64,000 nt of DNA from positions 26,453 to 90,452 of the forward strand of contig JAGFJO010000044.1 of assembly GCA_024102635.1 (NCBI GenBank). Direction: 5' to 3'. The position numbers and the translations under genes are program-made. The stretch comes from Deltaproteobacteria bacterium (GTDB lineage Bacteria > Bdellovibrionota_C > UBA2361 > JAGFJO01). Below are positions 20,872 through 46,765 of the stretch, piece by piece. Position 1 is the stretch's first letter. The number at the start of each line of letters is the position of its first letter. The notes below the pieces were generated by a model that searched no databases, was not told the DNA's origin, and worked only from the letters and a program-made list of their open reading frames with translations.

Positions 20872-21396
20872 ATGAAGTCACTCTTACGCCTCTTTTTCCT
20901 ATCGATCGGGACGGTGGCCCTGACCGCTATCAGCGCCTTCGCATTAGATGTCGGCGCAACTGCGCCGGAATTTTCGCTGCCGACAAGGGATGGCAAGCAG
21001 GTCACACTCTCCGATTTACGGGGTAAGGTAGTGTACCTGGATTTCTGGGCCTCTTGGTGCGGTCCATGCAAGCGCTCTCTTCCGTGGATGAACAAACTAA
21101 AACGGCAGTTCGGAGAGGAACGCCTGCATGTTTTGGCAGTGAATCTGGATACCGACAAAGATGATGCTGAACGGCTTTTAAAAGAAACTGCATCTAATAT
21201 TCCTGTGGCCTTCGACGCGGCTGGCTCTGTAGCGGAGCTCTACCGCCTCACGACCATGCCGACCTCTTTTCTAATAGATGGGTCAGGCAAGGTCTTGCAG
21301 GTCTATGAGGGGTTTCATGAGAAAGATGAAGAGAAGATTGAAAGTGCTATTAAAGAGCAACTTGAAGGAGGCATACGACATGTTAAAGCGAACTAA
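20872..21396 (+). CDS. TlpA/ResA-like periplasmic thiol-disulfide oxidoreductase
   Basis: Signal peptide; WASWCGPCKRSLPWMNKL CxxC thioredoxin motif. Confidence 0.8.
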   Translation: MKSLLRLFFLSIGTVALTAISAFALDVGATAPEFSLPTRDGKQVTLSDLRGKVVYLDFWASWCGPCKRSLPWMNKLKRQFGEERLHVLAVNLDTDKDDAERLLKETASNIPVAFDAAGSVAELYRLTTMPTSFLIDGSGKVLQVYEGFHEKDEEKIESAIKEQLEGGIRHVKAN

Positions 21397-21601
21397 TTTA
21401 TTGATCGCAGCGGTTGCGCTGATAGTTGCAATATTGGGATGCGCCGAAGTGAAGCCATGGCAGAAAGGCAATCTTGCTAAATCTCATATGGCCTTTGATA
21501 CCGATCCGGCCGAGTCGAGATTTACGCAGCATGTGTATACCTCAAAAGAGGGAAGCCATGGCGGATACGGAATCGGCGGCGGCGGTTGCGGCTGCAATTA
21601 A
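21380..21601 (+). CDS. DUF4266-family small lipoprotein
   Basis: MLKRTNLLIAAVALIVAILGC lipobox and C-terminal GGYGIGGGGCGCN; GGAGG RBS; overlaps the tlpA stop by 17 bp. Confidence 0.65.
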   Translation: MLKRTNLLIAAVALIVAILGCAEVKPWQKGNLAKSHMAFDTDPAESRFTQHVYTSKEGSHGGYGIGGGGCGCN

Positions 21602-21648
21602 GCGATTGTTTCCAGTTTTAACTCAAAGGTTCTTTCCTGGTTTTCGAG

Positions 21649-22794
21649 ATGACAAATTCATTCATAGACGAAAAAAAGCAACGCCTTTCCGGATACGAAG
21701 CGTTACCTAAATTGGTGTCTGCTGCGCTTGCAATTCCTGCCGTAGCAGCGACTGTACCGGCTAACGCCGAAAGTCCTTCAGAAGGGCCGATCATAAAGTT
21801 CTTTTACGGGGACTATGATGATAGGCAGCAGGGCGCAAGCCGCATGCACGTTAAAGCTCCGATGGTCTGGGTTAAATCTCCTATAAAAGATGGACTTGAA
21901 GCTGAGGGTAGCTTCGTGTGGGATAGTATGGGAGGCGCCTCGCCCTACTATCATAATACTTTAACTGGAGCCTCCGGACTGGGTGTCGAAGATATCAGGC
22001 GGGCAGGTGATTTGAAAGTAACCAAATACTTCGAGGACTTCAGCTTGGGCGGCGTGGTGGTTGCATCAGATGAGGATGACTACACCTCTATTGGCGGCGC
22101 AATTGAAAGCCGCATCTGGACCGCAGATAAAAATACCACTTTTACTGTCGGTTTCGGCGGAAATGAAGATGAGATTACTTCCAGCATAGCGCCCAATCTT
22201 GACGAGTCGCGCACGGTATTTAATGCGATCTTTGGAATTACTCAGGTAATAAATTCAGTTTCAATTATCCAGAGCAATATAACCTTATCTACCGGGGATG
22301 GATTTTATTCTGATCCCTACAAAACGCTGGATCGCAGACCCGAATCACGTGACCAATTGGCCTGGCTGACACGTTACAATCTGTATATTCCCGAACTGGA
22401 AGGATCACTGCATAGCGACTACCGCTTCTATACAGACAGCTGGGAGGTGAACTCCCATATGTTGGAATTCGCATGGTACCAGCCGATCGGCGAACGCTTC
22501 ATGGTGCGCCCCGGCGTACGATATTACTCTCAGGACTCTGCAGAGTTCTGGGTAAATGAGTTTCCACCTGAAGACCTAGAGAGCTTTATTACGGCCGATC
22601 AGCGCTTATCCAGCTTCGGTGGCGTAACCGGCAGCTTTAAAGTCATGGCCGATCTTTGGTACGGTTTCTCAGCGGACTTCGCTTATAACTATATGGAGCA
22701 GCGTCCTGAATGGCAGCTAGGCGGAGGGGGTTCGGATATTATGCTTCCATTTACAGCACATTGGGTCACAGTCGGCCTATCCAAGCAGTTTTAA
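21649..22794 (+). CDS. DUF3570-family protein (exported)
   Basis: N-terminal signal-like segment; family assignment from memory of the conserved DUF4266-DUF3570 pairing; contains the motif YYHNTLTGASGLG. Confidence 0.55.
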   Translation: MTNSFIDEKKQRLSGYEALPKLVSAALAIPAVAATVPANAESPSEGPIIKFFYGDYDDRQQGASRMHVKAPMVWVKSPIKDGLEAEGSFVWDSMGGASPYYHNTLTGASGLGVEDIRRAGDLKVTKYFEDFSLGGVVVASDEDDYTSIGGAIESRIWTADKNTTFTVGFGGNEDEITSSIAPNLDESRTVFNAIFGITQVINSVSIIQSNITLSTGDGFYSDPYKTLDRRPESRDQLAWLTRYNLYIPELEGSLHSDYRFYTDSWEVNSHMLEFAWYQPIGERFMVRPGVRYYSQDSAEFWVNEFPPEDLESFITADQRLSSFGGVTGSFKVMADLWYGFSADFAYNYMEQRPEWQLGGGGSDIMLPFTAHWVTVGLSKQF

Positions 22795-22849
22795 CGTGAT
22801 GGCATGAGATACGGCCCGGATTCCGCCTGAATAGCTCTACTCCGATTCA

Positions 22850-25027
22850 CTAAGCTGGGACCGATTCTCTCTCTCTGTTCCAAAACCGGTACTGCCCAAT
22901 TGCCTTTATGAATTCCCGGTTTAGCTCATCTAGTGTTGCCGCCGGCTCTATACCGGCTACATCTTTTGCTTTCTTCAAAGTCTCGGCGATTGCGCGGGCT
23001 GTAATTACTCCATTATTATTCCGCACTGCCGTGCCTTCCTGGTCCAAAGATATACCCGGCAGCCCCGATAGCAAATCAACCGCTTCCGCCATTGCCGCAA
23101 TCGGTTTGCAGTGCATGAACGCCTCGCGGATAAAGTGAATCGCTTTGCCACTGCCGCGTAAAGCCTTAACGTTTTCCGCCCCGCTAGGGATGTAAACGGC
23201 ATCGAATAGAACGGAGGCCGTAGTTAAAAAGTTTTCATCTACTAAAACTTCCACATTGTCGCTCCCCTCGATAGCGCCGCTCCGCGGAGCAACTACCTTG
23301 CACATTACTTTCTCCGATTGAAGTGCTGCTTTAAGAACCTCTACCTCCTGTCCCCTTACTCCATCTGCGGCAAGTATCGCCACCTTTCGCCCCTTAATCG
23401 CCCTCGTGCCATTCTCCATACTTAGCGCCTGAGATGCCCCTACCCCCTTCTTTTTCCGGCTCGGCCGGGGAGACGATGATTTTTCCAGGTAGGTAAGATC
23501 GCCGTTGATGTCCTTGACACCAACAAGCGGGCCTGCCCGTTCGGCGATCTCCGGAGATACGTTATAGAAAAGCTTTATAATCCGTTCGCGGATGTGCATG
23601 TTTTCCACTTTCCCGATCTCGAATTTAATCGCCTCGACTATATGTTCTTTCTCCGGCGCACTCATGCTGTTCCAGAATAGCTCAGCCTGTGAAAAGTGAT
23701 CGTTGAAACTCTCCGGCCGGGCGCGCAGCTTCGTACCCTGCTGCTTTTCGGTGTAGCTTACGAAACCGCGCTCCTTATCCTCTCGCGGCCGTCCTTCTTG
23801 CAAAGAGTTTGGTTCATAATTTACGCGCCCTGAACGTATGGTATGGCGCATGAATCCATCTTGGTTATTGTTGAAAATAGGGCACTGCGGCCGATTAATG
23901 GGAATCTCCGCAAAGTTTGCGCTTTGAAAGCGGTTGATCTGTGTGTCCAAATAAGAGAAGAGCCTCGCTTGCAACAGCGGATCATTGGTAAAATCAATTC
24001 CCGGAACCACATGACCGGGATGAAAAGCGACCTGTTCCGTCTCCGAAAAGAAATTATCGGGATTACGATTAAGCGTCATCTTCCCTACCCGCCGCACGGG
24101 CACAAGCTCTTCAGGCACAATCTTAGTGGGATCAAGGATATCAAAGTCGAATTTTGCAGCCTCTTCCTCGGTGAAAAGCTGAAAGCCAAGTTCGAATTCA
24201 GGATAAATGCCGTTCTCTATTCGCTCCCATAAGTCACGGCGATTGAAGTCGGGATCTTTTCCGGCAATCTTCTGCGTTTCATCCCAAACAAGTTGGCTAA
24301 CTCCCTCAAGCGGCTTCCAATGAATCTTACACAGAGTAGACTTCCCTTTTTCGCTTACAAGCCTGAAGGTGTGAACGCCGAATCCTTCCATCTGAGCGTA
24401 ACTTCTGGGGAGCGCTCTATCGGAGAGCACCCATAGAAGCATGTGAGTGATCTCCGGCGTAAGCGAGGCAAAGTCCCAGAAGTTATCATGAGCGGCGGAT
24501 GCTTGCGGCATTTCGTTGTGCGGCTCCGGCTTGATGGCATGCACTAAGTCGGGGAACTTTATTCCATCCTGTATGAAGAAAATAGGAATATTGTTACCCA
24601 CTAAATCGTACACGCCCTCGGACGTATAAAACTTCGTGGCAAAGCCGCGCACATCCCGCACCGTATCGGCCGAACCGCGAAACCCTACCACGGTTGAAAA
24701 GCGCGTAAAGACAGGCACCTCGTGCTGTGGATCGATAAGGAATCTCGCCTTGGTGAAGGCCTTCATTGAATCGTCATATACAGAGAACACTCCATGAGCT
24801 GCCGACCCTCGCGCATGCACTACCCGCTCCGGTATTCGCTCATGGTCGAAATGCATCATCTTCTCCCGGAAGATGAAGTCCTCCATTAGAGTTCCGCCAC
24901 GCGGTCCCGCGGTAAGCTGATCTTGATTGTTCGCAACCGGGCACCCCTGATTGGTCGTCAAGGTTTCTGTATCCTTGCTGTCAAGTGCGCTCTCGCTCGG
25001 TCTTGGCACCGCATCCTTCCTCTTCAT
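22850..25027 (-). CDS. katE: Large-subunit catalase HPII
   Basis: [15 protein letters not shown] and RLFSYLDTQ motifs; C-terminal DJ-1/PfpI-like domain; start at the ATG at 25027 (MKRKDAV) with an AGGAGAT RBS. Confidence 0.9.
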
Positions 25028-25214
25028 ATCTCCTCTATTCTCCTTTATTCCCTTGACGCTAAGCCCGGTTGGGGGCTTCCTGATGCAAAGAACAAACACT
25101 ATACCGTTGAGGTTGGATCTTCTATGTTAAGGATCAGTCTAAATCACCAACTCTCTTAGAGCTGATTAGTATGCGCGAAGAAGGGTGATAATCCAGCCGA
25201 ATTGGTGCGCTGAT

Positions 25215-25766
25215 CTATTTGGCAGCAACCGAACTGCCCTCGAACAATATCTTAGAAGTCTCTGGGTCGATAACCGGCCCCAACTCATATACGTTGCGAT
25301 ATCCGTATGTATAGAGCGCGGGAAGTGTCGAAAGATTAAGAGATGCGCCAAGAGCTTTGGTGGCGAAATCCTGCGGGGAATTCTCCACATTATTGTTGCA
25401 GTAAATTAATATTCTCGTCTCTTTGGAAGGTACTACTTTGGCCAGCGCCTGTTCTGTGAACTCCGTAAACGGAAGCGATTTTGCTCCGGCAATATGAATC
25501 CGCTCATACCTCTCCGCAGTGCGTGCATCCAGAATGATTGTGTTCGGATCGCCGGCCATATCTATAAATCGCTCCTCACTAACACGCCTCGATTCTCTGT
25601 CGGCGTGTGCCGCCATAACATCTGCCAGAAAGGCTTTTTGATCTATTAACCTGTTTGGTATCGGTGTGGACTGACCAAATACAGCCAATGGAAAAGAGAT
25701 CACTAAAACAAAAAGTAAAACCCGCACCGTTTCCTCATTACAAAAGGGGATGAATAATTTTACCAT
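25215..25766 (-). CDS. Secreted single-domain rhodanese-like protein
   Basis: Signal peptide; rhodanese fold with active-site loop IYCNNNVENSP; AGGGGAT RBS at the ATG at 25766. Confidence 0.7.
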   Translation of the reverse strand: MVKLFIPFCNEETVRVLLFVLVISFPLAVFGQSTPIPNRLIDQKAFLADVMAAHADRESRRVSEERFIDMAGDPNTIILDARTAERYERIHIAGAKSLPFTEFTEQALAKVVPSKETRILIYCNNNVENSPQDFATKALGASLNLSTLPALYTYGYRNVYELGPVIDPETSKILFEGSSVAAK

Positions 25767-25926
25767 ATCCCCTGATTTCATTGGCAGGAAAGAGGATTCG
25801 CACTTATTCGGAGTGGATTCTGAGTCTTAAATAGGCCCGCTGCCGATTACGATTATTTCAACGGATTATTTTAGGATAGGCGACTGAAATCCTGCTGTTT
25901 ACAAATTGTTGTAGTGAGCTTAATTC

Positions 25927-26829
25927 TTGGTAATGCCGTTGCATCTATATACATTTCCCTTCAAAGCTTTGGGTTCATCCTGCGAGGTGCAGCTCTATCA
26001 TACCGGCAAGCTGCCTGACCTGGCGCGCACTATCGCCGCCGAGGTAGAGAGGAAGGTATCAGATGTAGAGAGACGATATTCCCGATACAGAGATGAGAGT
26101 ATCGTGAGCCGCATCAACGCACGTGCCGGCGGGGAAGCTATAGAGGTGGACCCTGAGACTGCGGATCTCCTTGATTACGCCGGGAGCGCATTTGAGCAAA
26201 GCGGAGGGGTCTTTGATATTACCTCCGGGGTTCTAAGAAGAGTGTGGAATTTTAAGCATCCCCGTGTACCGCAGCAGGACGAAATCAGGGAGATGCTGAA
26301 ACTGGTAGGATGGGACAAGGTCGAGTGGCATCGCCCGCTCATTAGGCTGAAGCTGCCAGGAATGGAGCTTGACTTCGGTGGTTTCGGAAAGGAGTACTGC
26401 GTAGATGCCGCCGTTTCAGTGCTTATGAAGCACGGCGTTTCAAACGCCCTTGTGAATCTCGGCGGAGATGTTCGAGTTCTTGGCGGGCATCCTGACGGGC
26501 GGCCGTGGAGTATCGGCATAGCGCATCCACGCCGGGCCGGCGAAACAGCAGCCAGCTTAGAGCTTAAAAGCGGGGCTCTCGCTACAAGCGGCGATTACGA
26601 GAGGTACTTTGAAGTCGATGGGCACCGTTATTGTCACATATTGAATCCGAAAACCGGTTGGCCGGCCGACGGATTTCAATCGGTCACGGTCTGTAGTGAC
26701 CTCTGCCTGGTGGCTGGAACAGTTTCTACCACCGCAATGTTGCTTGGAGAAGGCGCGGGTCTTGAGTTCTTACGTTCTAGCGGCGTACAGTTTCTAAGCA
26801 TCAATAAGAGAGGAGAGACTGTTGTTTGA
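25927..26829 (+). CDS. apbE: FAD:protein FMN transferase
   Basis: ApbE family; DFGGFGKEY motif. Confidence 0.85.
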   Translation: MVMPLHLYTFPFKALGSSCEVQLYHTGKLPDLARTIAAEVERKVSDVERRYSRYRDESIVSRINARAGGEAIEVDPETADLLDYAGSAFEQSGGVFDITSGVLRRVWNFKHPRVPQQDEIREMLKLVGWDKVEWHRPLIRLKLPGMELDFGGFGKEYCVDAAVSVLMKHGVSNALVNLGGDVRVLGGHPDGRPWSIGIAHPRRAGETAASLELKSGALATSGDYERYFEVDGHRYCHILNPKTGWPADGFQSVTVCSDLCLVAGTVSTTAMLLGEGAGLEFLRSSGVQFLSINKRGETVV

Positions 26830-27924
26830 AGTTTTCATCTCACCTTGCGCCGCTTTACTGGCCACGGCTTTACCGGCAAGCGTACCGCAAGCGGCATTTA
26901 TGTCCTTTCCCCCCGAGTAGCGGCGAGCTACCGGCTGCCTAAGATGCTTGGATAGCGCATCACGGAAGAATTTCATCTCGCTTTCACTGGGAGGTTGATA
27001 TTGACCTCTGGAATCAGTGGCGTCAATCAGATCAAGTCTTACGGGGAGATCTCCAATTAGAGCGGCTAGCTCGACTGCGTCCTGTTCGGAAACATTGAAC
27101 CCGGAGATACAAACATAAGAGAGGTTGATTCTGTCACGGCGCGATTCGCTGTAGCGCCGAGCGGCCTTGATGACCTCATTCACAGGAGTTCGTGCGGCCA
27201 CCGGGACTAATGCAGCGCGTTTTTCATCGGTTGCGCCTCCTAGACTAATTGAGAGGCGAAAGGGATGCTTCTCAATGGTAAATCTTTCAATTTCGGGGAC
27301 CAATCCTACTGTGCTTATGGTGATGGCCTTGGCGCTTATTGCTCCGCTTACAGGATAGCATAGTAGCTTAGCAGCGGCGATCACTCTGTCGTAGTTTAAA
27401 AACGGCTCTCCCATACCCATGAAAACAGCTCCCGTAACCCTCTTGTTCTGAGAGCGCGCAATTTGCCGGGCTTTGATAAATTGTTCTACTATCTCCCAAG
27501 TGCGAAGGTTTCTGCGCTGCGCCATCTTTGCCGTAGCACAGAAAACGCATCCCATTACACACCCTACTTGGGAAGAAAGGCAGATACTTACACAGTTCTC
27601 TTTGTGCAGGGGGATTATTACCGTTTCGACAGGCAGGTTGTCCGGTGTATAGAAAAGCAGTTTCTGGAAGCCGTCTATTTGTGACACTGCCGACTCAGCA
27701 AGTTTAAGACAACGAGAGCAATCGAACAGCGCGGCTTTCGCTGCGGAGATAATTCCTCGGCTAGTCCAATCGACCGGCACCATTTCTCCTCTTTCTAATG
27801 TAGAAGCCAGTAGGCGCCGCATCTCCCTAGGTGATACGCCATGCTTTTTGCAAGCGCTTTCAAGCGCTGCGGGAGGCAAATCTCGCGGGTCAATTGAGTC
27901 GAAAGCTGTAAGTGCCGTTAACAT
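26794..27924 (-). CDS. rlmN: 23S rRNA (adenine2503-C2)-methyltransferase, radical SAM
   Basis: CVMGCVFC radical SAM cluster; RlmN/Cfr architecture; 36-bp convergent overlap with apbE. Confidence 0.85.
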   Translation of the reverse strand: MLTALTAFDSIDPRDLPPAALESACKKHGVSPREMRRLLASTLERGEMVPVDWTSRGIISAAKAALFDCSRCLKLAESAVSQIDGFQKLLFYTPDNLPVETVIIPLHKENCVSICLSSQVGCVMGCVFCATAKMAQRRNLRTWEIVEQFIKARQIARSQNKRVTGAVFMGMGEPFLNYDRVIAAAKLLCYPVSGAISAKAITISTVGLVPEIERFTIEKHPFRLSISLGGATDEKRAALVPVAARTPVNEVIKAARRYSESRRDRINLSYVCISGFNVSEQDAVELAALIGDLPVRLDLIDATDSRGQYQPPSESEMKFFRDALSKHLRQPVARRYSGGKDINAACGTLAGKAVASKAAQGEMKTSNNSLSSLIDA

Positions 27925-32606: not shown

Positions 32607-33410
32607 TTAATCCCGGGCAGAAGCTATTTTTTTGGCGGCGCTCTGCATTGTGCAGGCGTGATGCACGGTAGTGGGCATCTTTCTCAAAACCTTCAGCAAA
32701 TCTTCCGAGTCGAAGGGCTTTTTTAGAAACCCGGCTATAGTTTCTCCTTCGAACTCCTGCATTACCTGACGGTCCGAGTACCCGCTCATCAGTAGTACTC
32801 TAACCTCGGGATCAATCGCTTTAAGCCGCGCAAATACCAGATTTCCTCTTATATAGGGCATAGTAAGATCCAGTAGCACGCTATGAATCCTGCTGCGCTG
32901 ATCTTCGAAGATTTTGATCCCCTCTTTGCCGCTTCCCGTGGCCACGACTCTGAATCCGGCCCGTTCAAGTATCGCTGTGCTGACGTTCCGCACCACCTCC
33001 TCGTCGTCAATTACGAGGATCGTGTCTACCTCCCCCTCCAGACTGCTGAAGCTTTCTTGGATTCTCTTGAGCAGTCTAGGCGGGAGCTGCAGTGCAGCAT
33101 CGCTCTCTTGCATCACATACTGTGAAATCTCGCCGCTCTCTTCCAAATGATGAAGTTTAGCGGTAAGGCGGGTGCACCGTTCGGCACATCTAATTATCTC
33201 GTCTACAAGTCCTACCGCGGAGGGCTTCACGTGCTTTTCCTCCAGAAGGAAGCGCGCATTGCCAATAATCCCTACGAGAAGGTTGTTAAAATCATTCGCA
33301 AGATCGAGCAGCATTTCCTTTATCTCGGAATTGCTGTAAATTTTCCCACTAGTTTTAACGGGTGCTTTTTCATCGCTCATATTCTCATCGCTCATATTTT
33401 CATCGCTCAT
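32607..33410 (-). CDS. Response regulator: N-terminal helical, degenerate HisKA-like domain plus C-terminal receiver
   Basis: Receiver ILVIDDEEVVRN...LLDLTMPY...; N-terminal MSDENMSDENMSDEK; HisKA-like LLDLANDFNNLLVGIIGNARFLL lacking His; ATG at 33410 with a GAGG RBS (the track TTG at 33425 is unlikely). Confidence 0.7.
   Translation of the reverse strand: MSDENMSDENMSDEKAPVKTSGKIYSNSEIKEMLLDLANDFNNLLVGIIGNARFLLEEKHVKPSAVGLVDEIIRCAERCTRLTAKLHHLEESGEISQYVMQESDAALQLPPRLLKRIQESFSSLEGEVDTILVIDDEEVVRNVSTAILERAGFRVVATGSGKEGIKIFEDQRSRIHSVLLDLTMPYIRGNLVFARLKAIDPEVRVLLMSGYSDRQVMQEFEGETIAGFLKKPFDSEDLLKVLRKMPTTVHHACTMQSAAKKIASARD
33371..33410. repeat. 15-bp in-frame tandem repeat CATCGCTCATATTYT x2.7 at the 5' end of the response-regulator gene
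   Basis: Direct inspection; encodes (MSDEN)n. Confidence 0.8.
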
Positions 33411-33430
33411 AAGAGTGCGCCTCAAAAATT

Positions 33431-33476
33431 ATGACCAAGAACAACGCATGACCAAGAACGAAGCATGACCATAAGG
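33431..33476. promoter_or_regulatory. Three direct repeats ATGACCAAGAAC / ATGACCAAGAAC / ATGACCATAAGG with 17-bp period upstream of the response-regulator gene
   Basis: Direct inspection; located -21 to -66 relative to the regulator start codon. Confidence 0.35.
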
Positions 33477-35083: not shown

Positions 35084-35947
35084 TTAGCCTCCCAAGAGCT
35101 GGAGCGCTAGCTGTGGCTGCTGGTTAGCCTGTGCAAGAATTGCGGTTCCTGCCTGCTGCAGAATCGTTAAGCGAGTCAGTTCTGCAGCTTCGAATGCGAC
35201 GTCCACGTCGCGAATTCGGCTCTCCGCTGCTGAGAAGTTCTCCCTAGCAATCTGCAAATTTTCAATTGTTGTGGCAAGTCTACTCTCCGCAGCACCCAAA
35301 GTACCGCGATTTCGAGTAACCGAGACTATCGCTGTGTTAACCGCATCGAGCGCCTGCCGTGCTGCGGACTGTGACAGCTCGTCCGTTGCGCCGGTGATTG
35401 AGTATGTGTGTACCGATGAGTTGGGCGAAGCTAGCCCCAAGGCCGCGAGAGTCGCTTGTACTCCCGAGTACATGACCTGCGAGAGGGAGCTTCCGTCAAA
35501 CCCCACCTGAAAAGTTACATTTCCCCCTCCGCTGAGCAGATAGAGCCCGTTAAACTCTGTAGTGACAGCGATACGCTCTACCTCGCTCATAAGAGCGCTA
35601 AACTCAAGCTGCAGCGCCGATCGCTGGCCATTGCTGAAAACTCCGTTAGCTGATTGCTCGGCAAGTTCTGCCAGACGGCTTAGAACGTTTGTTATCTGGC
35701 CAATTGCGCCGTCGGTAATGGCAATAACCGAAATGCCGTCATTTGCATTTCGAATCGCCACTGTTGCTACCCGTGCGTCGGCTTTCAGGCTCTCGGCGAT
35801 TGCGAGTCCGGCTGCGTCATCCTTTGCCCTGTTGATTCTTAAACCGGAAGAGAGCCTCTCGTATGCGGTCCTGAGTCTCTCAGTTGACAGCCCGATGTTC
35901 CTCTGGGCTGCTAATGATGGTAAGTTAGTCCTAATATTGAGTGTCAT
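35084..35947 (-). CDS. fliC: Flagellin, short 287-aa type
   Basis: N-terminus MTLNIRTNLPSLAAQRNIG...LSSGLRINRAKDDAAGLAIAESL and C-terminus ESRIRDVDVAFEAAELTRLTILQQAG...LAQANQQPQLALQLLGG. Confidence 0.85.
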   Translation of the reverse strand: MTLNIRTNLPSLAAQRNIGLSTERLRTAYERLSSGLRINRAKDDAAGLAIAESLKADARVATVAIRNANDGISVIAITDGAIGQITNVLSRLAELAEQSANGVFSNGQRSALQLEFSALMSEVERIAVTTEFNGLYLLSGGGNVTFQVGFDGSSLSQVMYSGVQATLAALGLASPNSSVHTYSITGATDELSQSAARQALDAVNTAIVSVTRNRGTLGAAESRLATTIENLQIARENFSAAESRIRDVDVAFEAAELTRLTILQQAGTAILAQANQQPQLALQLLGG

Positions 35948-36064
35948 TTGCTACCATCCTTTTGGTATTTACCGCTTAATCCTGTTCAACAGTTTACCTC
36001 CAGTTTTACTTCTCATAGCGGGAGCGAGACTCACTATGGAGCGGCGCTCCCGCCGCGGGCTTCA

Positions 36065-36928
36065 TTATCCACCGAGCAGCTGCAGCGCGAGCTGCGGCTG
36101 AGCGTTAGCCTGCGCCAAGACGGCTGCGCCGGCCTGTTGCAGAATGTTAATTCTCGTTAGCTCAGCGGCCTCAGATGCTACATCAACATCCCGGATGCGG
36201 CTCTCGGCAGCCTTAAAGTTTTCGCGGGCCACTTGCAGGTTACTGATAGTAACCTCGAGCCGGCTTTCAGCCGCCCCCAAAGTACCTCTGTTCCGGGTAA
36301 TCGAAACGATAGCAGCATTAATTGCATCAAGGGCCAACCGAGAGGCGCTTTGCGAGAGAATGTCGGTCGAGTCAATAATTGAGTAGGTAACCGCCGAGGT
36401 TCCAGCTGGTGCTAACCCGAGCGCAGCAAGGGTTGTTTCTACTCCGGTGTATGACACTTGCGAAGTCGAAGCAGCATCGAAGCCGACCTGGAAAACCACC
36501 GTACCGGCGCCGCTCAGCAGTTTGAGTCCGTTGAATTCAGTAGTGAATGCGATACGCTCAATCTCACTTGTCAACGCGGTGAACTCGTTAGCAAGGGCTG
36601 ATCTCTGCGTATTACCGTACACACCGTTAGCCGATTGCTCGGCCAGCTCTGCAAGTCGGGTGAGAACGTTTCCAATTTGGCCGATCGCTTGATCGGCAAT
36701 GGAGATTATGGAGATACCGTCGCTGGCATTTCTGATAGCCACCGTGGCTACACGAGAATCGGCCTTCAAGCTCTCGGCGATAGAGAGACCGGCCGCGTCG
36801 TCGCGAGCGCGATTTATCCGGAGACCTGACGATAACCGCTCATAGGCGGTGTTCAATAATCCCGTCGAAGCGTCGAGGTTGCGCTGCGCTATGAGTGAAG
36901 GAACGTTGGTGCGAATATTGATTGCCAT
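36065..36928 (-). CDS. fliC: Flagellin paralogue (287 aa), in tandem
   Basis: MAINIRTNVPSLIAQRNL...; conserved D0/D1 termini; about 60% identical to the neighbour. Confidence 0.85.
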   Translation of the reverse strand: MAINIRTNVPSLIAQRNLDASTGLLNTAYERLSSGLRINRARDDAAGLSIAESLKADSRVATVAIRNASDGISIISIADQAIGQIGNVLTRLAELAEQSANGVYGNTQRSALANEFTALTSEIERIAFTTEFNGLKLLSGAGTVVFQVGFDAASTSQVSYTGVETTLAALGLAPAGTSAVTYSIIDSTDILSQSASRLALDAINAAIVSITRNRGTLGAAESRLEVTISNLQVARENFKAAESRIRDVDVASEAAELTRINILQQAGAAVLAQANAQPQLALQLLGG

Positions 36929-38165: not shown

Positions 38166-40040
38166 ATGGGAAGCTCTCAGCTCTTTAACAAAGGCGAACT
38201 TTTCGCTGAACGTTACAAGATCGAGCGCCACGTGGGTGATGGCGGTATGGGCGATGTGTACCTAGCACTAGATCTATTTTTAAACGAACAGCCGGTAGCC
38301 ATAAAAATAATCCAGCCCGACCTTCACAAAGATCCTTTGATAGCTCATCGATTCATGCGGGAGGTACAGATAGCCCGCGGCATTACGGATCGGCGCGTTG
38401 TGCGCACCTACGAATGTGGAGAGGTTGAAGGCAAGCTTTACCTCATAATGGAATTTGCGGATGGCGCTACGCTCAAGGAGATTCTAGCAGACGGCCCGAT
38501 GGATTGGGTGTCAGGTGCTAAAGTGGCTTACGATCTCTGCATCGGACTTTCGGCCATTCATGCCGCTGGAGTTATTCATCGAGATCTTAAGTCCAGCAAT
38601 GTCATTCTGACTTATGATGGACAGACGAAGATTTGCGATTTCGGAATTGCCCGTCCCAATCAGTCAGAATTGACGACCGGCGGCCAGATAATCGGCAGTG
38701 CGCAGTACATGGCACCGGAACTTTGGAGTGGCTCCGATGTGTCTTTCGCTGCTGACCTCTATGCTCTTGGGGTCCTTCTTTTTGAAATCGTCTCGGGTAC
38801 ATGTCCATTTTGCTCGGAGATCCCGGCGCAGCTAATGTACCATCATCTTTCAACCCAGCCGACATTCAGTGTCCAGACTATCGATACTACTCCCTCAGAG
38901 ATGCGCGAGTTGATTGTAAAACTGCTTGAAAAAGACCCGAAGCGGCGGCCCTCCATTCGAGAAGTGATGAAAGGGCTGGGAGAGATCCTGCTTAAAGCCG
39001 GAATTCCCCTTCCCGCTGTGTCATCCGAGTCCATTACCTTCCCCTCCTCCGGCAGCAACAAAATCAACCTTGATATCGCCGTTGATGCTCCACCTCCCAT
39101 TTTCTCATCGGCCACATTTGGGACAAGCGGTGCTCACTCATCAATCAGGACCTCCATCATTCAAAGCATGCTTATTAACGAGCAAAGGCGCCCCATAAAA
39201 GATTGGAAGATAGCCATAGTTGTCTGGTTGGCGATCATAGGCTACCTGGCCTTCATTGCATATGAAAAGCGGCATTCAGAGCAAGGCGCATTCAATCCCT
39301 TCCTGCAACAGGGGAAAGCAAAGGAGGTTTCGCCCTTTGAGCTACTAGCTCATTTCTCTGCTGAGACGTTACAATTAAGTGCAGGTTCCGCGGTCCCCGG
39401 CATTTCGGCCATCAATGCCAGTGCTCTCTCTCTCTCCCAGGCGGACGAGAGCTTCCGGCCCTCGTTAGAGATCCTTGAACTTAAAAGCGGCAGTCAACTT
39501 CCTGTATTACGCTTTGACGGAAACAATTATCTGGCGGGGGACGGACTGGCACGCAAAATCCGCTCGTTGAACGCGGTGAGTGTAGTGCTGATAGGAAGAA
39601 TGGAGCCGTCGCATCAGCTCGCCACCCTCTGGTCGATAGAACAAGGAAACGAGTATTCTGTAGCTCACATTCAGCAAGATCCTCATGGGAGAGTGATCCT
39701 GCGTGCAGGATCGAGTGTTGAAGGAAATACGGACGCGGTAGCCGGGCCGATCGATCTAACAGATTTATCTATTGTAACTTCGATAATTGACCCCGCTAAA
39801 GCGCGCCTTTTTATTAACGGTAAGCCAACCGTCGAATACTACATAAAGAATCATATTCGCTTTTATGAGTCAGCATTTTTTAGCGTTGGACAAAGCTACA
39901 CCAATAATCAAAAAACGCACTTCCTGAAGGGGGATATCGCTGAAATTTTAATCTTCTCAGGAGTGCTTCCTGAGGAGCAGCGGCTTGATTTGGAGAGGGA
40001 GTTGGCTGGAAGATATTCAATCCAGATACTCTCAGATTAG
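38166..40040 (+). CDS. Hanks-type Ser/Thr protein kinase with TM segment and extracellular LamG (Laminin_G_3) domain
   Basis: HRDLKSSNVIL, DFGIAR and APE motifs; TM IAIVVWLAIIGYLAFIAY; C-terminal FLKGDIAEILIFSGVLPEEQ LamG-like signature. Confidence 0.8.
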   Translation: MGSSQLFNKGELFAERYKIERHVGDGGMGDVYLALDLFLNEQPVAIKIIQPDLHKDPLIAHRFMREVQIARGITDRRVVRTYECGEVEGKLYLIMEFADGATLKEILADGPMDWVSGAKVAYDLCIGLSAIHAAGVIHRDLKSSNVILTYDGQTKICDFGIARPNQSELTTGGQIIGSAQYMAPELWSGSDVSFAADLYALGVLLFEIVSGTCPFCSEIPAQLMYHHLSTQPTFSVQTIDTTPSEMRELIVKLLEKDPKRRPSIREVMKGLGEILLKAGIPLPAVSSESITFPSSGSNKINLDIAVDAPPPIFSSATFGTSGAHSSIRTSIIQSMLINEQRRPIKDWKIAIVVWLAIIGYLAFIAYEKRHSEQGAFNPFLQQGKAKEVSPFELLAHFSAETLQLSAGSAVPGISAINASALSLSQADESFRPSLEILELKSGSQLPVLRFDGNNYLAGDGLARKIRSLNAVSVVLIGRMEPSHQLATLWSIEQGNEYSVAHIQQDPHGRVILRAGSSVEGNTDAVAGPIDLTDLSIVTSIIDPAKARLFINGKPTVEYYIKNHIRFYESAFFSVGQSYTNNQKTHFLKGDIAEILIFSGVLPEEQRLDLERELAGRYSIQILSD

Positions 40041-40099: not shown

Positions 40100-41605
40100 T
40101 TAGCAGTTGAATTTATGCCCATTTCTCTTGCACCACTCGGAGAAGTCAGGTAGCGCAAAAAGCTTGGCTAACTTCTCGTCTACCCCGTGATTCACGGCCT
40201 CCTCGAAACGCGTCTCCGAGATCAGCCCCTTCAGCCTAGATAACGCTTCGCGAACTTCTCGCGTGATATTTTGCAGCATCTGTTCTTCAACGCTAAGTTT
40301 CAACTCGGAAATGGCTTGCTTACGTTCAACCAGGTAGCGCGACTCCAGCGTAAAATCGGTTTTGGAGGACGCCTTACCGGAGGATTTTTGTGCTCGCGGT
40401 TCTTTTATATGCTGTGTAGAACTCGCTCCATCCCCTCTCGAGTAACCGCCCATGTCCTCCCCGGGCAGCATAAAGCTTTCAACATTCTCGACCGCCCGGT
40501 ATAGAAACCCGACCGGGCTTCTCTGTACTAGCTTGCTATTCCCGGCTATCAGCTTGTCCACATGCTCTATGACTCTGCGTATCTTGCCCCTAAGCTCAAG
40601 TGATCGCCCAGACACCAGGCGGCGCGCTTGAGGCGCAGAAATGCCTCTATTGATCAGTAATCCTGCGAGCTCACGATCTTCATCGCCAACCGGCTCACTT
40701 GGCGGCAGCAACATCGGCTGCACAGGCCTTCCGCTCTCCTCTTCGGTCGGTTTATCCAAAGAGCGCGGTTTACCGCGTGCAGCATACATCACTATTTCGC
40801 AGTCGCTGCCCTTACCGTAATACTCCACTTTGGAGAGAAAGCCCGTATGTATCAGCTCCTCAAAAGCCGGATCAAGCTGCTGCCGTATCGAACTAGTATA
40901 TTTATAATTCCGGGAAATACCGACCTTTTCATGCGCGAAGCAAAACAAATTCATCTGCACTTTGGCTTTATACCAAAAATGCTTATCCAGAAACCGGTAA
41001 ACCCGCTTTGAAATAGCGCTTTTCAAACTCAAATAAAATTCGAGGTCGAGTTTTTTTATGAACCCGACCTGAAAACTTTTGAAAAGCACTTCACTCCAGA
41101 TGAAAAAACTGCGCTTGTTCTCCCCGTCCCTTCCGTCGTTGATCTCATACCCGTCGATAATGCCGAAATTCTTCGTATGGTGCAGTTTTGTTTCATTGTC
41201 GTAAAAAGCGTTGGTGGCCTTTATTCTAACGCCGCTAAGCCGATCCAAGGCGCGCTGCAGCCGGGTATAACTGCGGCCCTCGGTTGTCCATCTCAAGGTT
41301 TTGAGTATCTCATAGCGAGTAAAATACACCTTTGGATTTCGCATCCCGCTCTCGACGGTTAGCTTCAAAAGACCAAGCAGAACCTCGTCATCCGATGCTG
41401 TCGGTAATCCAAATTTATCGGCCCCGGTAATTATCCATTTTCGATCCACCAGTTCGCCGTTCTTTGTTCGAATATTGTCGCTGAACTCTAGAGTTTTAGT
41501 TTTAGGATTAGAGCGTGTAGATAGAACCGTTAGTGGAAATTCAGCCAAATTCATCTCATCTCTCGAGAGACGTTTCGGCATCTGTGTAAGTATTAACTGA
41601 TCCAT
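40100..41605 (-). CDS. repA: Plasmid-type replication initiator protein RepA (RPA family)
   Basis: N-terminus MDQLILTQMPKRLSRDEMNLAEFPLTVLS, characteristic of the replication initiator protein A family; followed by an iteron array; ATG at 41605. Confidence 0.7.
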   Translation of the reverse strand: MDQLILTQMPKRLSRDEMNLAEFPLTVLSTRSNPKTKTLEFSDNIRTKNGELVDRKWIITGADKFGLPTASDDEVLLGLLKLTVESGMRNPKVYFTRYEILKTLRWTTEGRSYTRLQRALDRLSGVRIKATNAFYDNETKLHHTKNFGIIDGYEINDGRDGENKRSFFIWSEVLFKSFQVGFIKKLDLEFYLSLKSAISKRVYRFLDKHFWYKAKVQMNLFCFAHEKVGISRNYKYTSSIRQQLDPAFEELIHTGFLSKVEYYGKGSDCEIVMYAARGKPRSLDKPTEEESGRPVQPMLLPPSEPVGDEDRELAGLLINRGISAPQARRLVSGRSLELRGKIRRVIEHVDKLIAGNSKLVQRSPVGFLYRAVENVESFMLPGEDMGGYSRGDGASSTQHIKEPRAQKSSGKASSKTDFTLESRYLVERKQAISELKLSVEEQMLQNITREVREALSRLKGLISETRFEEAVNHGVDEKLAKLFALPDFSEWCKRNGHKFNC

Positions 41606-41734
41606 ATTCAAAAACTTGAAAGGAACTTTAACTTACTTTTAGTTAGTTAAACAATCAGTGTTAAGGTTACTAGTTAGATAGTGAGCGGCACTGATTGCAA
41701 AAGATAAGAGATACTTACAACCGCAAATTTCTTT

Positions 41735-42005
41735 CAGATCACGACGATCCTTAGTTCGCATCACGATAAGATCATAACTCGATGCACGATCAAAATTATC
41801 TCAGCGCGCGATTCGATTTATTCTCGTGCTCGATACTTCTGATTCGGAAGCACGAACTGGATTTACGATGGATCACGACACTTACCCGAGCGCACTATAC
41901 TTAATGCTAATAAAACGAATAAAAACAGGTAGTTAGCATAGCCAAGAGCGGGTAATAAGTACAAGGCAGTCTGCGGAAGCAACGATTTACTTGGTGTCAC
42001 GATTC
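41735..42005. promoter_or_regulatory. oriV-like iteron array: at least 7 copies of (A/G)(T/C)CACGA at 22-23 bp spacing, one inverted, in an AT-rich region
   Basis: Core hexamers at 41739, 41761, 41784, 41824 (inverted), 41850, 41873 and 41997, read directly from the sequence. Confidence 0.5.
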
Positions 42006-42160
42006 GACGTCTGCTCTTCTCTGCCCCTCTCTCACTTAAAGAAGGTTCCTAAGTGCTACTATTTTTTTCTAACTGTGGCTATTCCTGACTTTAATCTGGA
42101 TCTCCATACCCTTTTCTGCAAAATTACTTATCTCAGTGCACGTATCTTTTGGGGGTTCAG

Positions 42161-42949
42161 GTGGCAACAGTAATCGGAGTAGTGAATCAGAAAGGTGGAG
42201 TTGGAAAAACTACTACAACGGTTAATCTAGGTGCGGCACTTGCGAAGCATGGCAAGCGAACCTTACTCATAGATATCGACGCTCAAAGCAATCTAACGAC
42301 TCATCTTGGCCTTGGGCCGAAAGAAGATGCAGAAGCGGTAGAGAAGCCTTTAATACCAGAGTTCACTATTTACGACGTTCTGAAAGGCAACAAAGAGCTC
42401 AAGGATGTGGTTATACATAGAAGCGATAATCTCGATGTGGTCCCTTCTAGCCTGTTTTTGAGTGCTGCAGATCTAGAGCTTGGCGGAGTGGTCGGAAGGG
42501 AGCTTATCTTGAGGCGGGCCCTAGCTTCTGTAATGGATAGCTACGACTTTGTACTTATTGATTGTCCCCCTGCCCTTGGTCTTCTCTCGCTTAACGCGCT
42601 TGCGGCAGTAAACCGCGTCGTCATTCCTGTCCAGAGTGAGTACTTAGCGCTTCACGGAGTCCGTCAACTACTGGATACTATTGATCAGGTTAGAGGCATA
42701 TATAATCCTGCACTTGTTGTCGGGGGAGTTCTTATCTGCCTTCACGATAACCGCAAGCGATTGGCGCGAGCAGTGTCAGATACTATACGCGCCTATTTCG
42801 GCGATCTGGTCTTTGATACTGTAATCCGATCAAATGTGGCACTAGCTGAGGCGCCCGCAAGTGGGCAAACTATATTCGAATATTCGCTGAAGTCTTCTGG
42901 TGCAGAGGATTATGAGGCGCTCGTAAAGGAGATTTTGGAAGATGTCTAA
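42161..42949 (+). CDS. parA: ParA-family partition ATPase
   Basis: VIGVVNQKGGVGKTTT deviant Walker A; GTG start at 42161 with a GGGGG RBS (the track TTG at 42149 is also possible). Confidence 0.85.
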   Translation: MATVIGVVNQKGGVGKTTTTVNLGAALAKHGKRTLLIDIDAQSNLTTHLGLGPKEDAEAVEKPLIPEFTIYDVLKGNKELKDVVIHRSDNLDVVPSSLFLSAADLELGGVVGRELILRRALASVMDSYDFVLIDCPPALGLLSLNALAAVNRVVIPVQSEYLALHGVRQLLDTIDQVRGIYNPALVVGGVLICLHDNRKRLARAVSDTIRAYFGDLVFDTVIRSNVALAEAPASGQTIFEYSLKSSGAEDYEALVKEILEDV

Positions 42950-43808
42950 AAGAAAACTGGTATTAGCGAATAATCCCCTACTTTCCGGTCCCGCGCTCGG
43001 TGAACGCGAACGAATCGGCATTCCCTACCGCCAACTTGCTTTGAATGCAATTGAACGAGATCCAAACCAGCCTCGAGTACACTTTGATGAAGATAGACTG
43101 CAGGAGCTGGCCTCGTCCATTCGGACCTATGGTATTCTGAGCCCCCTTCTCGTGCGGCCGTCAAAAGTAGCAGGCAAGTATATTCTTATCTCCGGCGAGC
43201 GGCGGATGAGAGCGGCTCAACTTGTCGGACTGGCCACTGTACCTGCGCTGATTGATCAAACCGAGGTCGAATCGGGCGAGAGAACTCTAGCAATGCAGCT
43301 GGTTGAAAATCTTCAGCGGGCAGATCTAAGTCCATTGGAGCGGGCGCATGCAATTGGCGCACTAAAGGAGAGCTATTCTCTCAGTATTCGAGAAGTTGCT
43401 GATAGATTGGGAGTATCAAAAGGAATGGTTCAGAGGAGCTTGGATATCTTGGAGCTTCCTGATGATCTGCTAAATGCATTGAGAGAGGGTGCTTCCGAGT
43501 CTAAGATCCTTCTACTTTCCAAGATTGAGAATGAGGAGATACGCGCCAGCTACTTAAAGGATCTGGATGTACTTACGCGCAATCAGTTAAAAAAAGACAT
43601 TGAGAAGAGCTCTACAGAGAGCGAAGAGAGCACGAACGCACTCAGCCCCGAAGACCACCGAATTGCCGATGAAATTCGAAGAGCACTCGGCACAAAGGTT
43701 AGAATGTTTCGGCCGAAACCTGATTCTGAAGGTGGACGAATTACCATCGACTTTTATACCAACGAGGACCTACAGGTAATATTCCGAAGGCTAGTGGCTG
43801 AGGGGTAG
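42942..43808 (+). CDS. parB: ParB/Spo0J-family partition protein
   Basis: ILISGERRMRAAQLVG ParB box and HTH; overlaps the parA stop. Confidence 0.85.
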   Translation: MSKRKLVLANNPLLSGPALGERERIGIPYRQLALNAIERDPNQPRVHFDEDRLQELASSIRTYGILSPLLVRPSKVAGKYILISGERRMRAAQLVGLATVPALIDQTEVESGERTLAMQLVENLQRADLSPLERAHAIGALKESYSLSIREVADRLGVSKGMVQRSLDILELPDDLLNALREGASESKILLLSKIENEEIRASYLKDLDVLTRNQLKKDIEKSSTESEESTNALSPEDHRIADEIRRALGTKVRMFRPKPDSEGGRITIDFYTNEDLQVIFRRLVAEG

Positions 43809-43871
43809 ACCATTTCCATATCCCGGCACCATAGGTGTGAAGTCGAATGGGGTGCCTGCCACTATTCTGAT

Positions 43872-44090
43872 GGACTCGCTTCATTCGATACGGGCGCAAT
43901 TCGCCCTTACTCCCCTCGACTCGCTTCGCTCGCTCAAGACAGGTCTTTCGACAAGCTCAGGAACAGTCCTTCGACTCGCATTGCTCGCTCAAGACAAGAC
44001 CTTCGACAAGCTCAGGAACAGTCCTTCGACTCGCTTCGCTCGCTCAAGACAGGTCTTTCGACTCGCTTCGCTCGCTCAAGACAGGCTGTA
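43872..44090. repeat. Tandem direct repeats (32-bp unit x4 interleaved with a 23-bp unit x2) downstream of parB; candidate centromere
   Basis: TCGACTCGCTTCGCTCGCTCAAGACAGGTCTT at 43916, 43971 (variant), 44026 and 44058; TCGACAAGCTCAGGAACAGTCCT at 43948 and 44003. Confidence 0.6.
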
Positions 44091-44207
44091 CCACCGAGGT
44101 ACACTTTTAGGCTGAAAAAATTCGACCGGTTTAAGTTGCAATTTCTCGCTCTTTCGTGAAAGCTCGTGAAGTGTACCGCCGCGGTACACAACCACTTCAA
44201 ATCGAAT

Positions 44208-45527
44208 ATGGAAGCTTCTAGCCCTACTGAGGGTCTTTTATACCTAAAGCAATTGGGAACCTGGAATGGCCGCTCGCAGTTCAAGTTGGATTCATTGCGC
44301 ATGGTGATGCGTGAACTTGGAGATCCTCAGGACCGAATCAAATCTGTAATTGTAGGCGGTACCAACGGCAAAGGATCTGTGTCTGCCGCGTTAGCAGCGA
44401 TATTAGGGCAGGGGGGTAGTAGAGTTGGGCTGAACATATCTCCCCACCTAACTTCAGTTGAAGAAAGGATAGTAATCGATGGCGTGGCCGTATCGAGTGA
44501 TGACCTAAATCGAGCTGCAATAATCATTCGTGATACGGCGAAAGCGGTTGGGACATTCCTGAGCTTTCATGAAGCAATAACCGCGACGGCCTATCTGCTA
44601 ATGCATGATCTTAATTGTGAATGGGGAGTTTTTGAGGTTGGAGTGGGGGGAAGGCTTGACGCAGCCAATATTATTCGGAATCCGGAGGCCTCGGTGATTG
44701 TTTCGGTCGGGCTCGATCATCAGCTTCTATTGGGTGACACCATATCCAAAATTGCGCGCGAGAAGGCCGGCATAATGCGGGAAAATACGCCCGTTATTAC
44801 GGGACAAATGCAGCCAGAGGCCGAAAAGGAGCTCTCTGAGTGCGCATTGAGTGTGGGGGCTCGGAGGTATTCATATGGTCGAGACTACTCGGTTATGCTC
44901 GAGTCCCACGAGATTCCTTATTTCAGATCACGAGAGTGGGGTGATGTGGCGCTCGCCCCGTCATTAGTAGGCGAGCATCAGATACATAATATGTCAGTTG
45001 CCATCTGCGCCGGACGTGTACTCGGTAGTTCGATTGGAAACTGCTCGGGCGGCGTTTCATCGGTTCACTGGCCTGCCAGACTGGAGCGGGTCAGTTACCA
45101 TGGTAGGGAGATACTTTTAGACTGTGCTCACAACGTACCGGGAGTAGAAGCACTGTGTCATTACCTTCGATCAAGAAAGTTATTTAATATTACCTGTATC
45201 TTCGGCGCTATTAAGACTAAGGAGTGGCGGGAGATGGCTACCCGTTTAGCGCCATATGTTTCTCGCTGGTTGCTACTAGAGCCAGTATCTGAGCATGCTG
45301 TAAGTTGTTTGGAGCTTTCAAAATTTCTTTCTGGATTCGACGCGAAGCAGGAGGTGTTCGGCGGTGATTATGAGCGGTTACTTGCAAAGGTGGCGGGAGA
45401 GAAGGGGAGTGGGGGCATAGTGGCCACAGGATCTATTTATATGATAGGAGGACTTAGAGCGTTAATTGTTCCAAATGATCGTCCCTTATGGCACCGTATT
45501 CCCTTTAAAAGGACTGCAAATAGTTAA
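44208..45527 (+). CDS. folC: Bifunctional folylpolyglutamate synthase/dihydrofolate synthase
   Basis: Mur-ligase P-loop VIVGGTNGKGS; ATG at 44208. Confidence 0.8.
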   Translation: MEASSPTEGLLYLKQLGTWNGRSQFKLDSLRMVMRELGDPQDRIKSVIVGGTNGKGSVSAALAAILGQGGSRVGLNISPHLTSVEERIVIDGVAVSSDDLNRAAIIIRDTAKAVGTFLSFHEAITATAYLLMHDLNCEWGVFEVGVGGRLDAANIIRNPEASVIVSVGLDHQLLLGDTISKIAREKAGIMRENTPVITGQMQPEAEKELSECALSVGARRYSYGRDYSVMLESHEIPYFRSREWGDVALAPSLVGEHQIHNMSVAICAGRVLGSSIGNCSGGVSSVHWPARLERVSYHGREILLDCAHNVPGVEALCHYLRSRKLFNITCIFGAIKTKEWREMATRLAPYVSRWLLLEPVSEHAVSCLELSKFLSGFDAKQEVFGGDYERLLAKVAGEKGSGGIVATGSIYMIGGLRALIVPNDRPLWHRIPFKRTANS

Positions 45528-46447: not shown

Positions 46448-46765
46448 CTATTTAAATTGATAAAGATAGCGCTTAAGGTCTATGACTGCTCCCCGTCCTA
46501 TGGGGATGCCTTCTTGTTTTAGCATCTCTACTTTTTTGGCGGTGCCTAGGGCGTAGCCTCCAATCTCCCCGCTGGAGCGCACAACCCGGTGGCACGGAAC
46601 GGCGGGTGCGTTGGGGTTTCTGTTCATTGCATTGCCCACAGCTCTGTAGGCCTTGCTTCGAAGTTTACGGGCAATCAATGCGTAAGTCGTTACCTTGCCC
46701 TTCGGAATCTGACGAAGAAGTTCGTAGCACTTTTGATCAAAGGATTTCTTACTCACAACTATCAA
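46448..46765 (-). CDS. MGMT-family methylated-DNA-protein-cysteine methyltransferase, DNA-binding/active-site domain only
   Basis: PCHRVVRSSGEIGGY active-site motif; only 105 aa. Confidence 0.7.
   Translation of the reverse strand: MIVVSKKSFDQKCYELLRQIPKGKVTTYALIARKLRSKAYRAVGNAMNRNPNAPAVPCHRVVRSSGEIGGYALGTAKKVEMLKQEGIPIGRGAVIDLKRYLYQFK

Follow-up and report, generated by a model that had tools for sequence, protein, structure and literature searches.

We analysed a 64-kb stretch of DNA (64,000 nt) from contig JAGFJO010000044.1, referred to here as the window and supplying all coordinates unless another locus is named, and found in it a complete plasmid-type replication and partition module made up of a repA initiator gene, an AT-rich intergenic region with iterons, a parAB operon and sequence repeats. 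An earlier sequence-only reading of the same DNA had named each of these elements (repA, iterons, parAB, repeats), and all of them were found where it had placed them; domain matches likewise bore out its placement of the module directly between a Ser/Thr kinase gene and folC. The module and its two flanks comprise, in order along the window:

38166-40040: Ser/Thr kinase gene (Pfam), flanking the module on the repA side
40100-41611, minus strand: repA, RPA-family iteron-type initiator, 503 amino acids from the first TTG
41726-41878, plus strand: origin iteron array of seven direct in-phase units
41892-41926: candidate DNA-unwinding element, ~72% A+T in a 40-nt composition scan, adjoining the iteron array
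42149-42949, plus strand: parA, Walker-type partition ATPase of the chromosomal Soj type (Pfam AAA_31, 193 bits; CbiA)
42942-43808, plus strand: parB, centromere-binding protein (ParB_N 91 bits, HTH_ParB 37 bits, TIGR00180 144 bits)
43913-44085: tandem repeat of 55- and 32-nt period, its 28-nt core present four times (43916-44085)
44087-44103: parS-like palindrome 1, TGTACCACCGAGGTACA, 17 bp
44172-44188: parS-like palindrome 2, TGTACCGCCGCGGTACA, 17 bp, 5' of the likely folC start
44166/44208-45527: folC (Pfam), the other flank of the module, with its likely start at ATG 44208

The assignment of RepA to a known initiator family was confirmed by a match to Pfam RPA (PF10134) far above the cut-off (69.3 bits against 27, E 4.7e-19), and a second match, to TrfA, lay slightly under its cut-off (20.9 against 22 bits). 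The NCBI protein for this gene (P0001) has 501 amino acids, consistent with an ATG start at 41605, which is likely the true start; an exact-sequence look-up of the window RepA and of this NCBI twin returned no record. The sequence-only reading had the gene end next to the AT-rich region, and the adjacency is real, but repA lies on the minus strand, so that its 5' end rather than its 3' end faces the iterons. None of the solved Rep proteins matched RepA at the sequence level, a Pfam scan of its C-terminal 222 amino acids found no domain, and the helical region of ~200 amino acids at the C-terminus is lineage-specific.

For comparison we used the best 80 of the 221 GTDB species genomes that hold a RepA relative, nearly all of them metagenome-assembled genomes (MAGs) labelled Bdellovibrionota, Bdellovibrionales, Oligoflexia or Deltaproteobacteria and many of them from lakes; the sample consists of metagenome assemblies throughout. 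Some counts refer to smaller sets, namely 73 mapped loci (~1.2 Mb), 74 origin regions, 63 loci reaching the region after parB and, for GC skew, 51 loci with at least 4 kb on each flank.

AT content in the window is highest in the 537 bp that separate repA from parA (42.7% GC at 41001-42000, compared with ~50% in the window). Within this region, the seven iteron cores start at 41740, 41762, 41785, 41807, 41829, 41851 and 41874, at spacings of 22, 23, 22, 22, 22 and 23 bp; five of the seven cores read CACGA and the other two are degenerate (CGCGA, CTCGA), and an inverted core, TCGTG, lies within the array at 41824-41828. The earlier count of at least seven iterons spaced 22-23 bp apart, with one inverted copy, could thus be located in full. 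Two CACGA cores separated by 16-18 nt occur four times in the 64 kb, three of them in the origin, against 0.24 expected. Across the 73 mapped loci, the distances between CACGA cores peak at 22 bp (142 pairs, with a further 26 at 23 bp) and again at 44, 66-67 and 88-89 bp, and the core and its 22-bp period are retained in ~70 loci, giving a position-weight consensus of TTTTTATTTCAATTCACGATA. The stretch at 41892-41926, beside the array, is a candidate for the DNA-unwinding element by its composition and position.

Further sites in and around the origin, several of them scored with the iteron matrix, are the following:

41637-41656: conserved 20-mer TTTTAGTTAGTTAAACAATC, 25-50 nt 5' of the repA start
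41984-42004, plus strand: isolated iteron GATTTACTTGGTGTCACGATT, scoring 15.7 bits on the matrix, higher than the lowest quarter of its training iterons
42124-42143, plus strand: near-iteron TTACTTATCTCAGTGCACGT, just 5' of parA, counterpart of the pre-parA iteron in other loci
42729-42749, plus strand: iteron-like site TTCTTATCTGCCTTCACGATA in parA, 18.2 bits, encoding VLICLHDN
44154-44168, minus strand: a pair of inverted iteron cores, at 44154-44158 and 44164-44168 (each TCGTG on the plus strand), in the gap separating the palindromes
44907-44935, plus strand: outlying iteron in folC, with a CACGA core at 44907 followed by TCCTTATTTCAGATCACGAGA

The 20-mer TTTTAGTTAGTTAAACAATC is found once in the window and once per locus, at a constant position, in 49 of the 80 loci (at most 3 mismatches), and may be a promoter or operator of repA or part of the unwinding region. 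It is kept although RepA is only ~55% identical among those species, and a second, partly conserved motif, GTTACTAG..GAGCGG, follows it at ~41665-41688. DnaA boxes, which are common but not universal in the origins of iteron plasmids, were not enriched in the 74 origin regions (1 perfect and 12 one-mismatch sites, against 0.4 and 10 expected). Control of the iterons through Dam methylation of GATC was considered and rejected, with origin density equal to background across loci (4.7 per kb each); the window's own origin holds six GATC sites.

Matches to the iteron matrix were not confined to the intergenic region. Across loci, with the median score of the training iterons as threshold, they numbered 7.17 per kb there, 0.85 per kb in folC and the gap preceding it, 0.51 in parA, 0.14 in ispA, 0.03 in parB and none in repA; farther out, the parA side contained none over 279 kb and the repA side 0.015 per kb. 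The top iteron match of the entire window is TCCTTATTTCAGATCACGAGA in folC (44915-44935, 23.6 bits). In the related loci, iteron density in the folC region, at 2-4.2 kb from the origin, is ~57 times that of the far repA-side flank, and this housekeeping gene thus seems to contain a second, conserved group of RepA-binding sites. A chance origin of the CACGA pair in folC had at first been suspected, as pairs outside the origin were scattered, and was set aside when the full-length matrix showed conserved enrichment. Between the two palindromes, where the window has only inverted cores, many related loci have a full inverted iteron. The parA site TTCTTATCTGCCTTCACGATA scores above threshold at the same place in ~25-30 related loci and makes up the bulk of the parA matches, and the protein sequence alone may account for its retention.

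Both partition proteins are of chromosomal type. ParA carries the deviant Walker A motif NQKGGVGKTT, and its closest solved relatives are chromosomal ParA/Soj proteins (8RAY, 193 bits; Thermus thermophilus Soj, 181 bits); it is 46% identical to Bacillus subtilis Soj and 32% identical to a planctomycete plasmid ParA. ParB carries ISGERRMRAA (the GERRxRA motif of the CTP-binding N-terminal domain) and a helix-turn-helix, and among solved structures it is nearest to chromosomal ParB, Spo0J and Noc, not to plasmid partition proteins. The overlap of the two genes noted earlier was confirmed and spans 8 nt. When ParB was compared with 1.84 billion representative proteins, matches within the lineage scored 200-360 bits and were followed by a plateau at 130-158 bits and 35-41% identity; no close outgroup was present among these proteins, and the nearest clusters were mostly unnamed.

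The candidate centromere is the pair of 17-bp palindromes rather than the tandem repeat. Palindromes of the family TGT(C/A)CCAC(C/G)GTGG(G/T)ACA occur in 62 of the 63 loci that hold the region, with exactly two copies in 53, and the 73 mapped loci contain 135 of them against 0.3 expected. All 135 lie on the parA side, no more than ~2.5 kb from the origin and usually right after parB, and positions 4 and 14 form a C-G pair in 107 sites, an A-T pair in 10 and a mixed pair in 12. The canonical 16-bp parS was absent from the window at up to 3 mismatches and from the full 1.34 Mb of window and related loci searched. The tandem repeat, which the sequence-only reading had described as ~220 bp of centromere-like repeats, is indeed present, but is not the centromere: its 28-nt core has no further copy in the window and no match in any of the 80 related loci. 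Because the palindromes start 13-39 bp after parB in the related loci checked, the repeat is an insertion private to the source genome, lodged between the parB stop and parS. A 92-amino-acid open reading frame (ORF) over the repeat (43837-44115) has no Pfam match and is probably a by-product of it.

Evidence that this region is in use as an origin came from GC skew in 73 related genomes. Skew was lower on one side of the intergenic region in all 51 loci with long enough flanks, and in 44 of them the sign switched in the direction that an origin predicts. Pooled in 1-kb bins, all 9 on the repA side gave negative values and all 9 on the parA side positive ones, with the switch in the bin of the intergenic region. 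The switch does not derive from gene orientation, because at third codon positions the skew of the top strand had the same sign for both gene strands on each side: -0.082 for plus genes (n=79) and -0.095 for minus genes (n=359) on one side, and +0.071 (n=246) and +0.064 (n=200), respectively, on the other. In the window, cumulative G-C reaches a local minimum at 42,134 and then climbs without a break to the window end; rightward of 42 kb, 19 of the 21 selected ORFs (at least 90 amino acids) are directed away from the origin. As the skew flips here regardless of gene strand, the intergenic region serves as a bidirectional origin.

The module is also old. Wherever a contig extends far enough, the order repA, intergenic region, parA-parB-folC-ispA is held in the 80 loci, with parA present in 71, parB in 69, and folC and ispA in 55 each; on the repA side, an SLT gene with two flagellin genes is syntenic in 27 and trpS in 12. 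Identity to the window proteins is 44-65% for RepA, 58-82% for ParA, 46-73% for ParB, 34-46% for FolC and 33-48% for IspA, and the ranges for RepA as compared with those for FolC and IspA indicate a deep lineage in which RepA has been at least as constrained as its housekeeping neighbours. The locus stands on contigs of 709, 601, 412, 377 and 336 kb (at 391-412 kb in the 601-kb contig), with an origin arm of at least 680 kb in one contig. Since the 601-kb contig and the 377-kb JGI contig hold the same locus and neighbours, and since gene order is conserved, recent integration and assembly chimerism are ruled out. More than 1,000 RepA relatives at 50-63% identity were found in metagenomes; a metagenome scan recovered 51 loci, the longest on a 149-kb contig, and no full-length match above 69% identity. 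These comparisons show the module to be ancestral and vertically inherited in an uncultured, mostly freshwater clade of Bdellovibrionota. One MAG, UWPOB_DELTA1, has two contigs with versions of the repA locus (L001 and L065) that are 87.8% identical over 1,152 nt; this bin probably mixes two related strains rather than two replicons.

Taken together, we think it probable, with good confidence, that the locus is the active origin and partition locus of a large, vertically inherited replicon carrying core genes, and that this replicon is most likely a secondary chromosome (chromid) coexisting with a DnaA-driven main chromosome. The chromid is plausible but unproven, and we clearly favour it over a main chromosome. 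Chromids are recognised, besides their coexistence with a separate, larger dnaA/oriC chromosome of similar base composition, by plasmid-type replication and partition together with core genes that other bacteria carry on the chromosome, and here the module shares its contig with trpS, folC, farnesyl pyrophosphate (FPP) synthase, bioB, rsgA, ung and flagellin genes. The sequence-only reading had proposed the origin of a chromid or megaplasmid; a plasmid-type module with an active origin among core genes stands, but a dispensable megaplasmid is unlikely because the module and its synteny (folC, ispA, flagellins, trpS) are conserved where FolC is only 34-46% identical, and on contigs of up to 709 kb.

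Mechanistically, RepA monomers would bind the seven in-phase iterons, all on one face of the helix, and their binding would melt the neighbouring AT-rich stretch and recruit the replicative helicase, with or without help from DnaA; forks would then depart in both directions. ParB would load at the two palindromes and spread by means of its CTP-binding N-terminal domain, and ParA would segregate the copies. On the model of low-copy iteron plasmids and Vibrio chromosome 2, the extra iteron-like sites (before parA, in parA, beside parS and in folC) would most likely restrain initiation, whether through titration of RepA or through handcuffing, in which they pair with the iterons of the origin.

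Several points weigh against this interpretation. The N-terminal half of the RepA structural model is of low confidence (predicted local distance difference test, pLDDT, ~50), and Foldseek with this low-confidence model returned no significant match. Taken by itself, the window gives a faint skew signal on its left arm, where the curve hardly slopes, and its global minimum of cumulative G-C lies at 25,772, slightly deeper than the one at 42,134. In the window and the related loci, neither dnaA nor a second parAB or second replicon of the lineage came to light, and the chromid is a presumed one; RepA binding, unwinding, helicase loading and the binding of ParB to the 17-bp palindrome are steps that we infer.

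The strongest alternative keeps the same origin but makes the replicon the main or only chromosome, on which a RepA-iteron origin replaced dnaA/oriC in the clade ancestor; a plasmid could have fused with the chromosome and oriC then been lost, with dnaA now absent or no longer the initiator. We regard this as unlikely. In its favour, such evolutionary depth would be unusual for a chromid (RepA down to 44% and FolC at 34-46% identity in 221 species genomes), core-gene synteny around the origin is stable, one contig extends at least 680 kb to one side of the origin, the partition proteins belong to the Soj/Spo0J type, and three genomes have tRNA-Pro and tRNA-Ala near the origin. The lack of DnaA-box enrichment in the 74 origin regions and of canonical parS in 1.34 Mb points the same way, as does a search with Escherichia coli DnaA, which found no dnaA in the window and none closer than 10 kb to repA in the 80 loci. 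In its full form, this alternative has a plasmid initiator taking over the main or only chromosome of a class- or order-level, free-living Bdellovibrionota clade, with the re-spaced 17-bp parS replacing the 16-bp centromere that is nearly universal elsewhere, a scenario to which we give a low but real probability. We know of no free-living bacterium that has been shown to run its main chromosome from an iteron initiator, and the prior for such an arrangement is accordingly low. Altered parS spacing is what would be expected if ParB avoids cross-talk with a canonical system in the same cell, the ParB has no close relative outside the lineage and hence gives no sign of being the native Bdellovibrionota ParB, and the 64 kb contain no rRNA or tRNA gene and, in the ORFs scanned, no ribosomal-protein domain. 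The chromid therefore remains our preferred reading.

Far less probable is a plasmid, or its remnant, integrated in a DnaA-driven chromosome, with a module that would fire rarely or not at all. In favour of this are the plasmid-type character of the module and the plasmid location of the nearest RepA relatives. Against it, the borders of the module are conserved core genes, without integrase, transposase or conjugation domains in the ORFs scanned and without att-like features; the module has the same position in ~70 species, its RepA has been better conserved than adjacent housekeeping genes, and the skew data, with a switch exactly at the locus and independent of gene strand, contradict this reading. 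An assembly or binning artefact joining plasmid to chromosomal DNA can be dismissed almost entirely, for even though all the assemblies are metagenomic and UWPOB_DELTA1 holds two locus versions (mixed strains), both junctions of the module recur in dozens of independent assemblies from varied groups and assemblers, long-read contigs included.

Plasmid-derived origins on replicons with essential genes are known in Vibrio, Burkholderia, Deinococcus and rhizobia, and are usually conserved at genus or family level. The present origin is conserved with its iterons, candidate centromere and core neighbours over at least 221 species-level genomes, in which housekeeping proteins are ~35-45% identical. 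If the replicon is a chromid, it would be an unusually old one and, judging by full-text literature searching, the first found for the phylum; such searching of the literature on Bdellovibrionota/Oligoflexia found no RepA-type replicon, chromid or loss of dnaA. Should it instead be the main chromosome, DnaA-dependent initiation would have been replaced in a free-living lineage. In addition, the locus offers a natural parS variant with an extra central base, putative initiator sites in folC and a defined iteron consensus.

Among known systems, Deinococcus chromosome II and megaplasmids and the Thermus megaplasmids are also large replicons with an RPA-family RepA (PF10134), but belong to another phylum and are only distantly similar (22-27% identity), and conservation in the present clade spans a much deeper lineage. 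In Deinococcus radiodurans, cis elements upstream of parAB are reported in a preprint to interact with DnaA and ParBs (10.1101/2020.03.28.013953), whereas the present origin has no excess of DnaA boxes. The closest RepA on a bona fide plasmid is found in Planctomycetota plasmids such as pPL62-2 (86 kb), at 33-38% identity and ~490-506 amino acids. As here, repA adjoins parA-parB on pPL62-2, though codirectionally there and divergently around the iterons here, and the nearest plasmid relatives in general carry repA beside parA or parA-parB. These plasmids are, however, small and carry accessory and insertion sequence (IS) genes, and the ParA of pPL62-2 is only 32% identical to that of the window.

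Chromosome 2 of Vibrio cholerae offers a second parallel, as a domesticated plasmid-type origin on a replicon with core genes, where the initiator gene (encoding RctB), iterons and parAB2 are adjacent (PMC6090056, PMC6212839). Its extra initiator-binding sites outside the minimal origin, which restrain initiation, parallel the putative ones of the present locus. RctB is unrelated to RPA, and its iterons are methylation-dependent 11/12-mers, while the present origins show no general enrichment of GATC. The two systems also differ in ParA, long and plasmid-type in ParA2, short and Soj-type here. Classical iteron plasmids (F RepE, R6K Pi, pPS10 RepA, and P1 RepA with incA) differ in that RepA matches no solved Rep in sequence, has a lineage-specific C-terminus of ~200 amino acids without a Pfam match, and has outlying sites inside folC. 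In comparison with canonical ParABS (Soj/Spo0J, 16-bp parS TGTTNCACGTGAAACA), the ParA and ParB types are alike and the sites adjoin parB in both. The half-site TGTnCCAC resembles that of canonical parS (TGTTNCAC), but the present site is 17 bp long, with one extra central base between the arms and changes at positions 4-5.

The gene content of the window was surveyed by domain scans of nearly all ORFs of at least 130 amino acids and several shorter ones (~8 ORFs of 96-179 amino acids, none in the module, were left out). Genes of core function include trpS, the FPP synthase gene (ispA), bioB, rsgA, ung, a gene for a TlyA-like FtsJ methyltransferase and one for an RF-1-domain, ArfB-like protein; catalase, DsbD, peroxiredoxins, two flagellins and lytic transglycosylases are also encoded. 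Of the core genes placed earlier within 15 kb on either side of the module, arfB is ~20 kb away, and the supposed rlmN (26794-27924) has a radical-SAM match only. No integrase, transposase or conjugation domain was found among the window ORFs scanned, in agreement with the sequence-only reading. No rRNA, tRNA or other Rfam family was detected in the 64-kb window, and no ribosomal-protein domain among its scanned ORFs. In some members of the lineage the replicon does carry tRNA genes: tRNA-Pro(GGG) and tRNA-Ala(GGC) lie ~5-10 kb from repA in three related loci (L046 20092-20357, L055 16051-16328 and L064 15100-15399).

On the repA side, the Ser/Thr kinase (38166-40040) has a C-terminal Laminin_G_3-like region; its gene lies between repA and the SLT gene, is transcribed toward the origin and has a counterpart in none of the 80 related loci, i.e., it is specific to the source genome. 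Two adjoining flagellin genes (35084-36928), ~5 kb from the origin, encode 287 amino acids each, and both proteins are 68-84% identical to their counterparts in the 27 related loci where they are syntenic. At the flagellin position of the 601-kb contig (L081, 15829-18546), a protein of 905 amino acids has flagellin N- and C-terminal domains around FG-GAP repeats and would be a giant flagellin. Two short tandem repeats with 15- and 17-nt units (33370-33471) cover the 5' end of a response-regulator gene (32607-33425, minus strand) and the sequence just upstream of it. Farther left, a dip in cumulative G-C at ~20000-25800 coincides with minus-strand genes including that of the catalase (22850-25099), and the left arm of the closest relatives (L002 and L003) has almost no skew as well. 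On the parA side, a 105-amino-acid protein (46448-46765) corresponds to the DNA-binding domain of O6-methylguanine methyltransferase alone, and is found beside ispA in L081 too.

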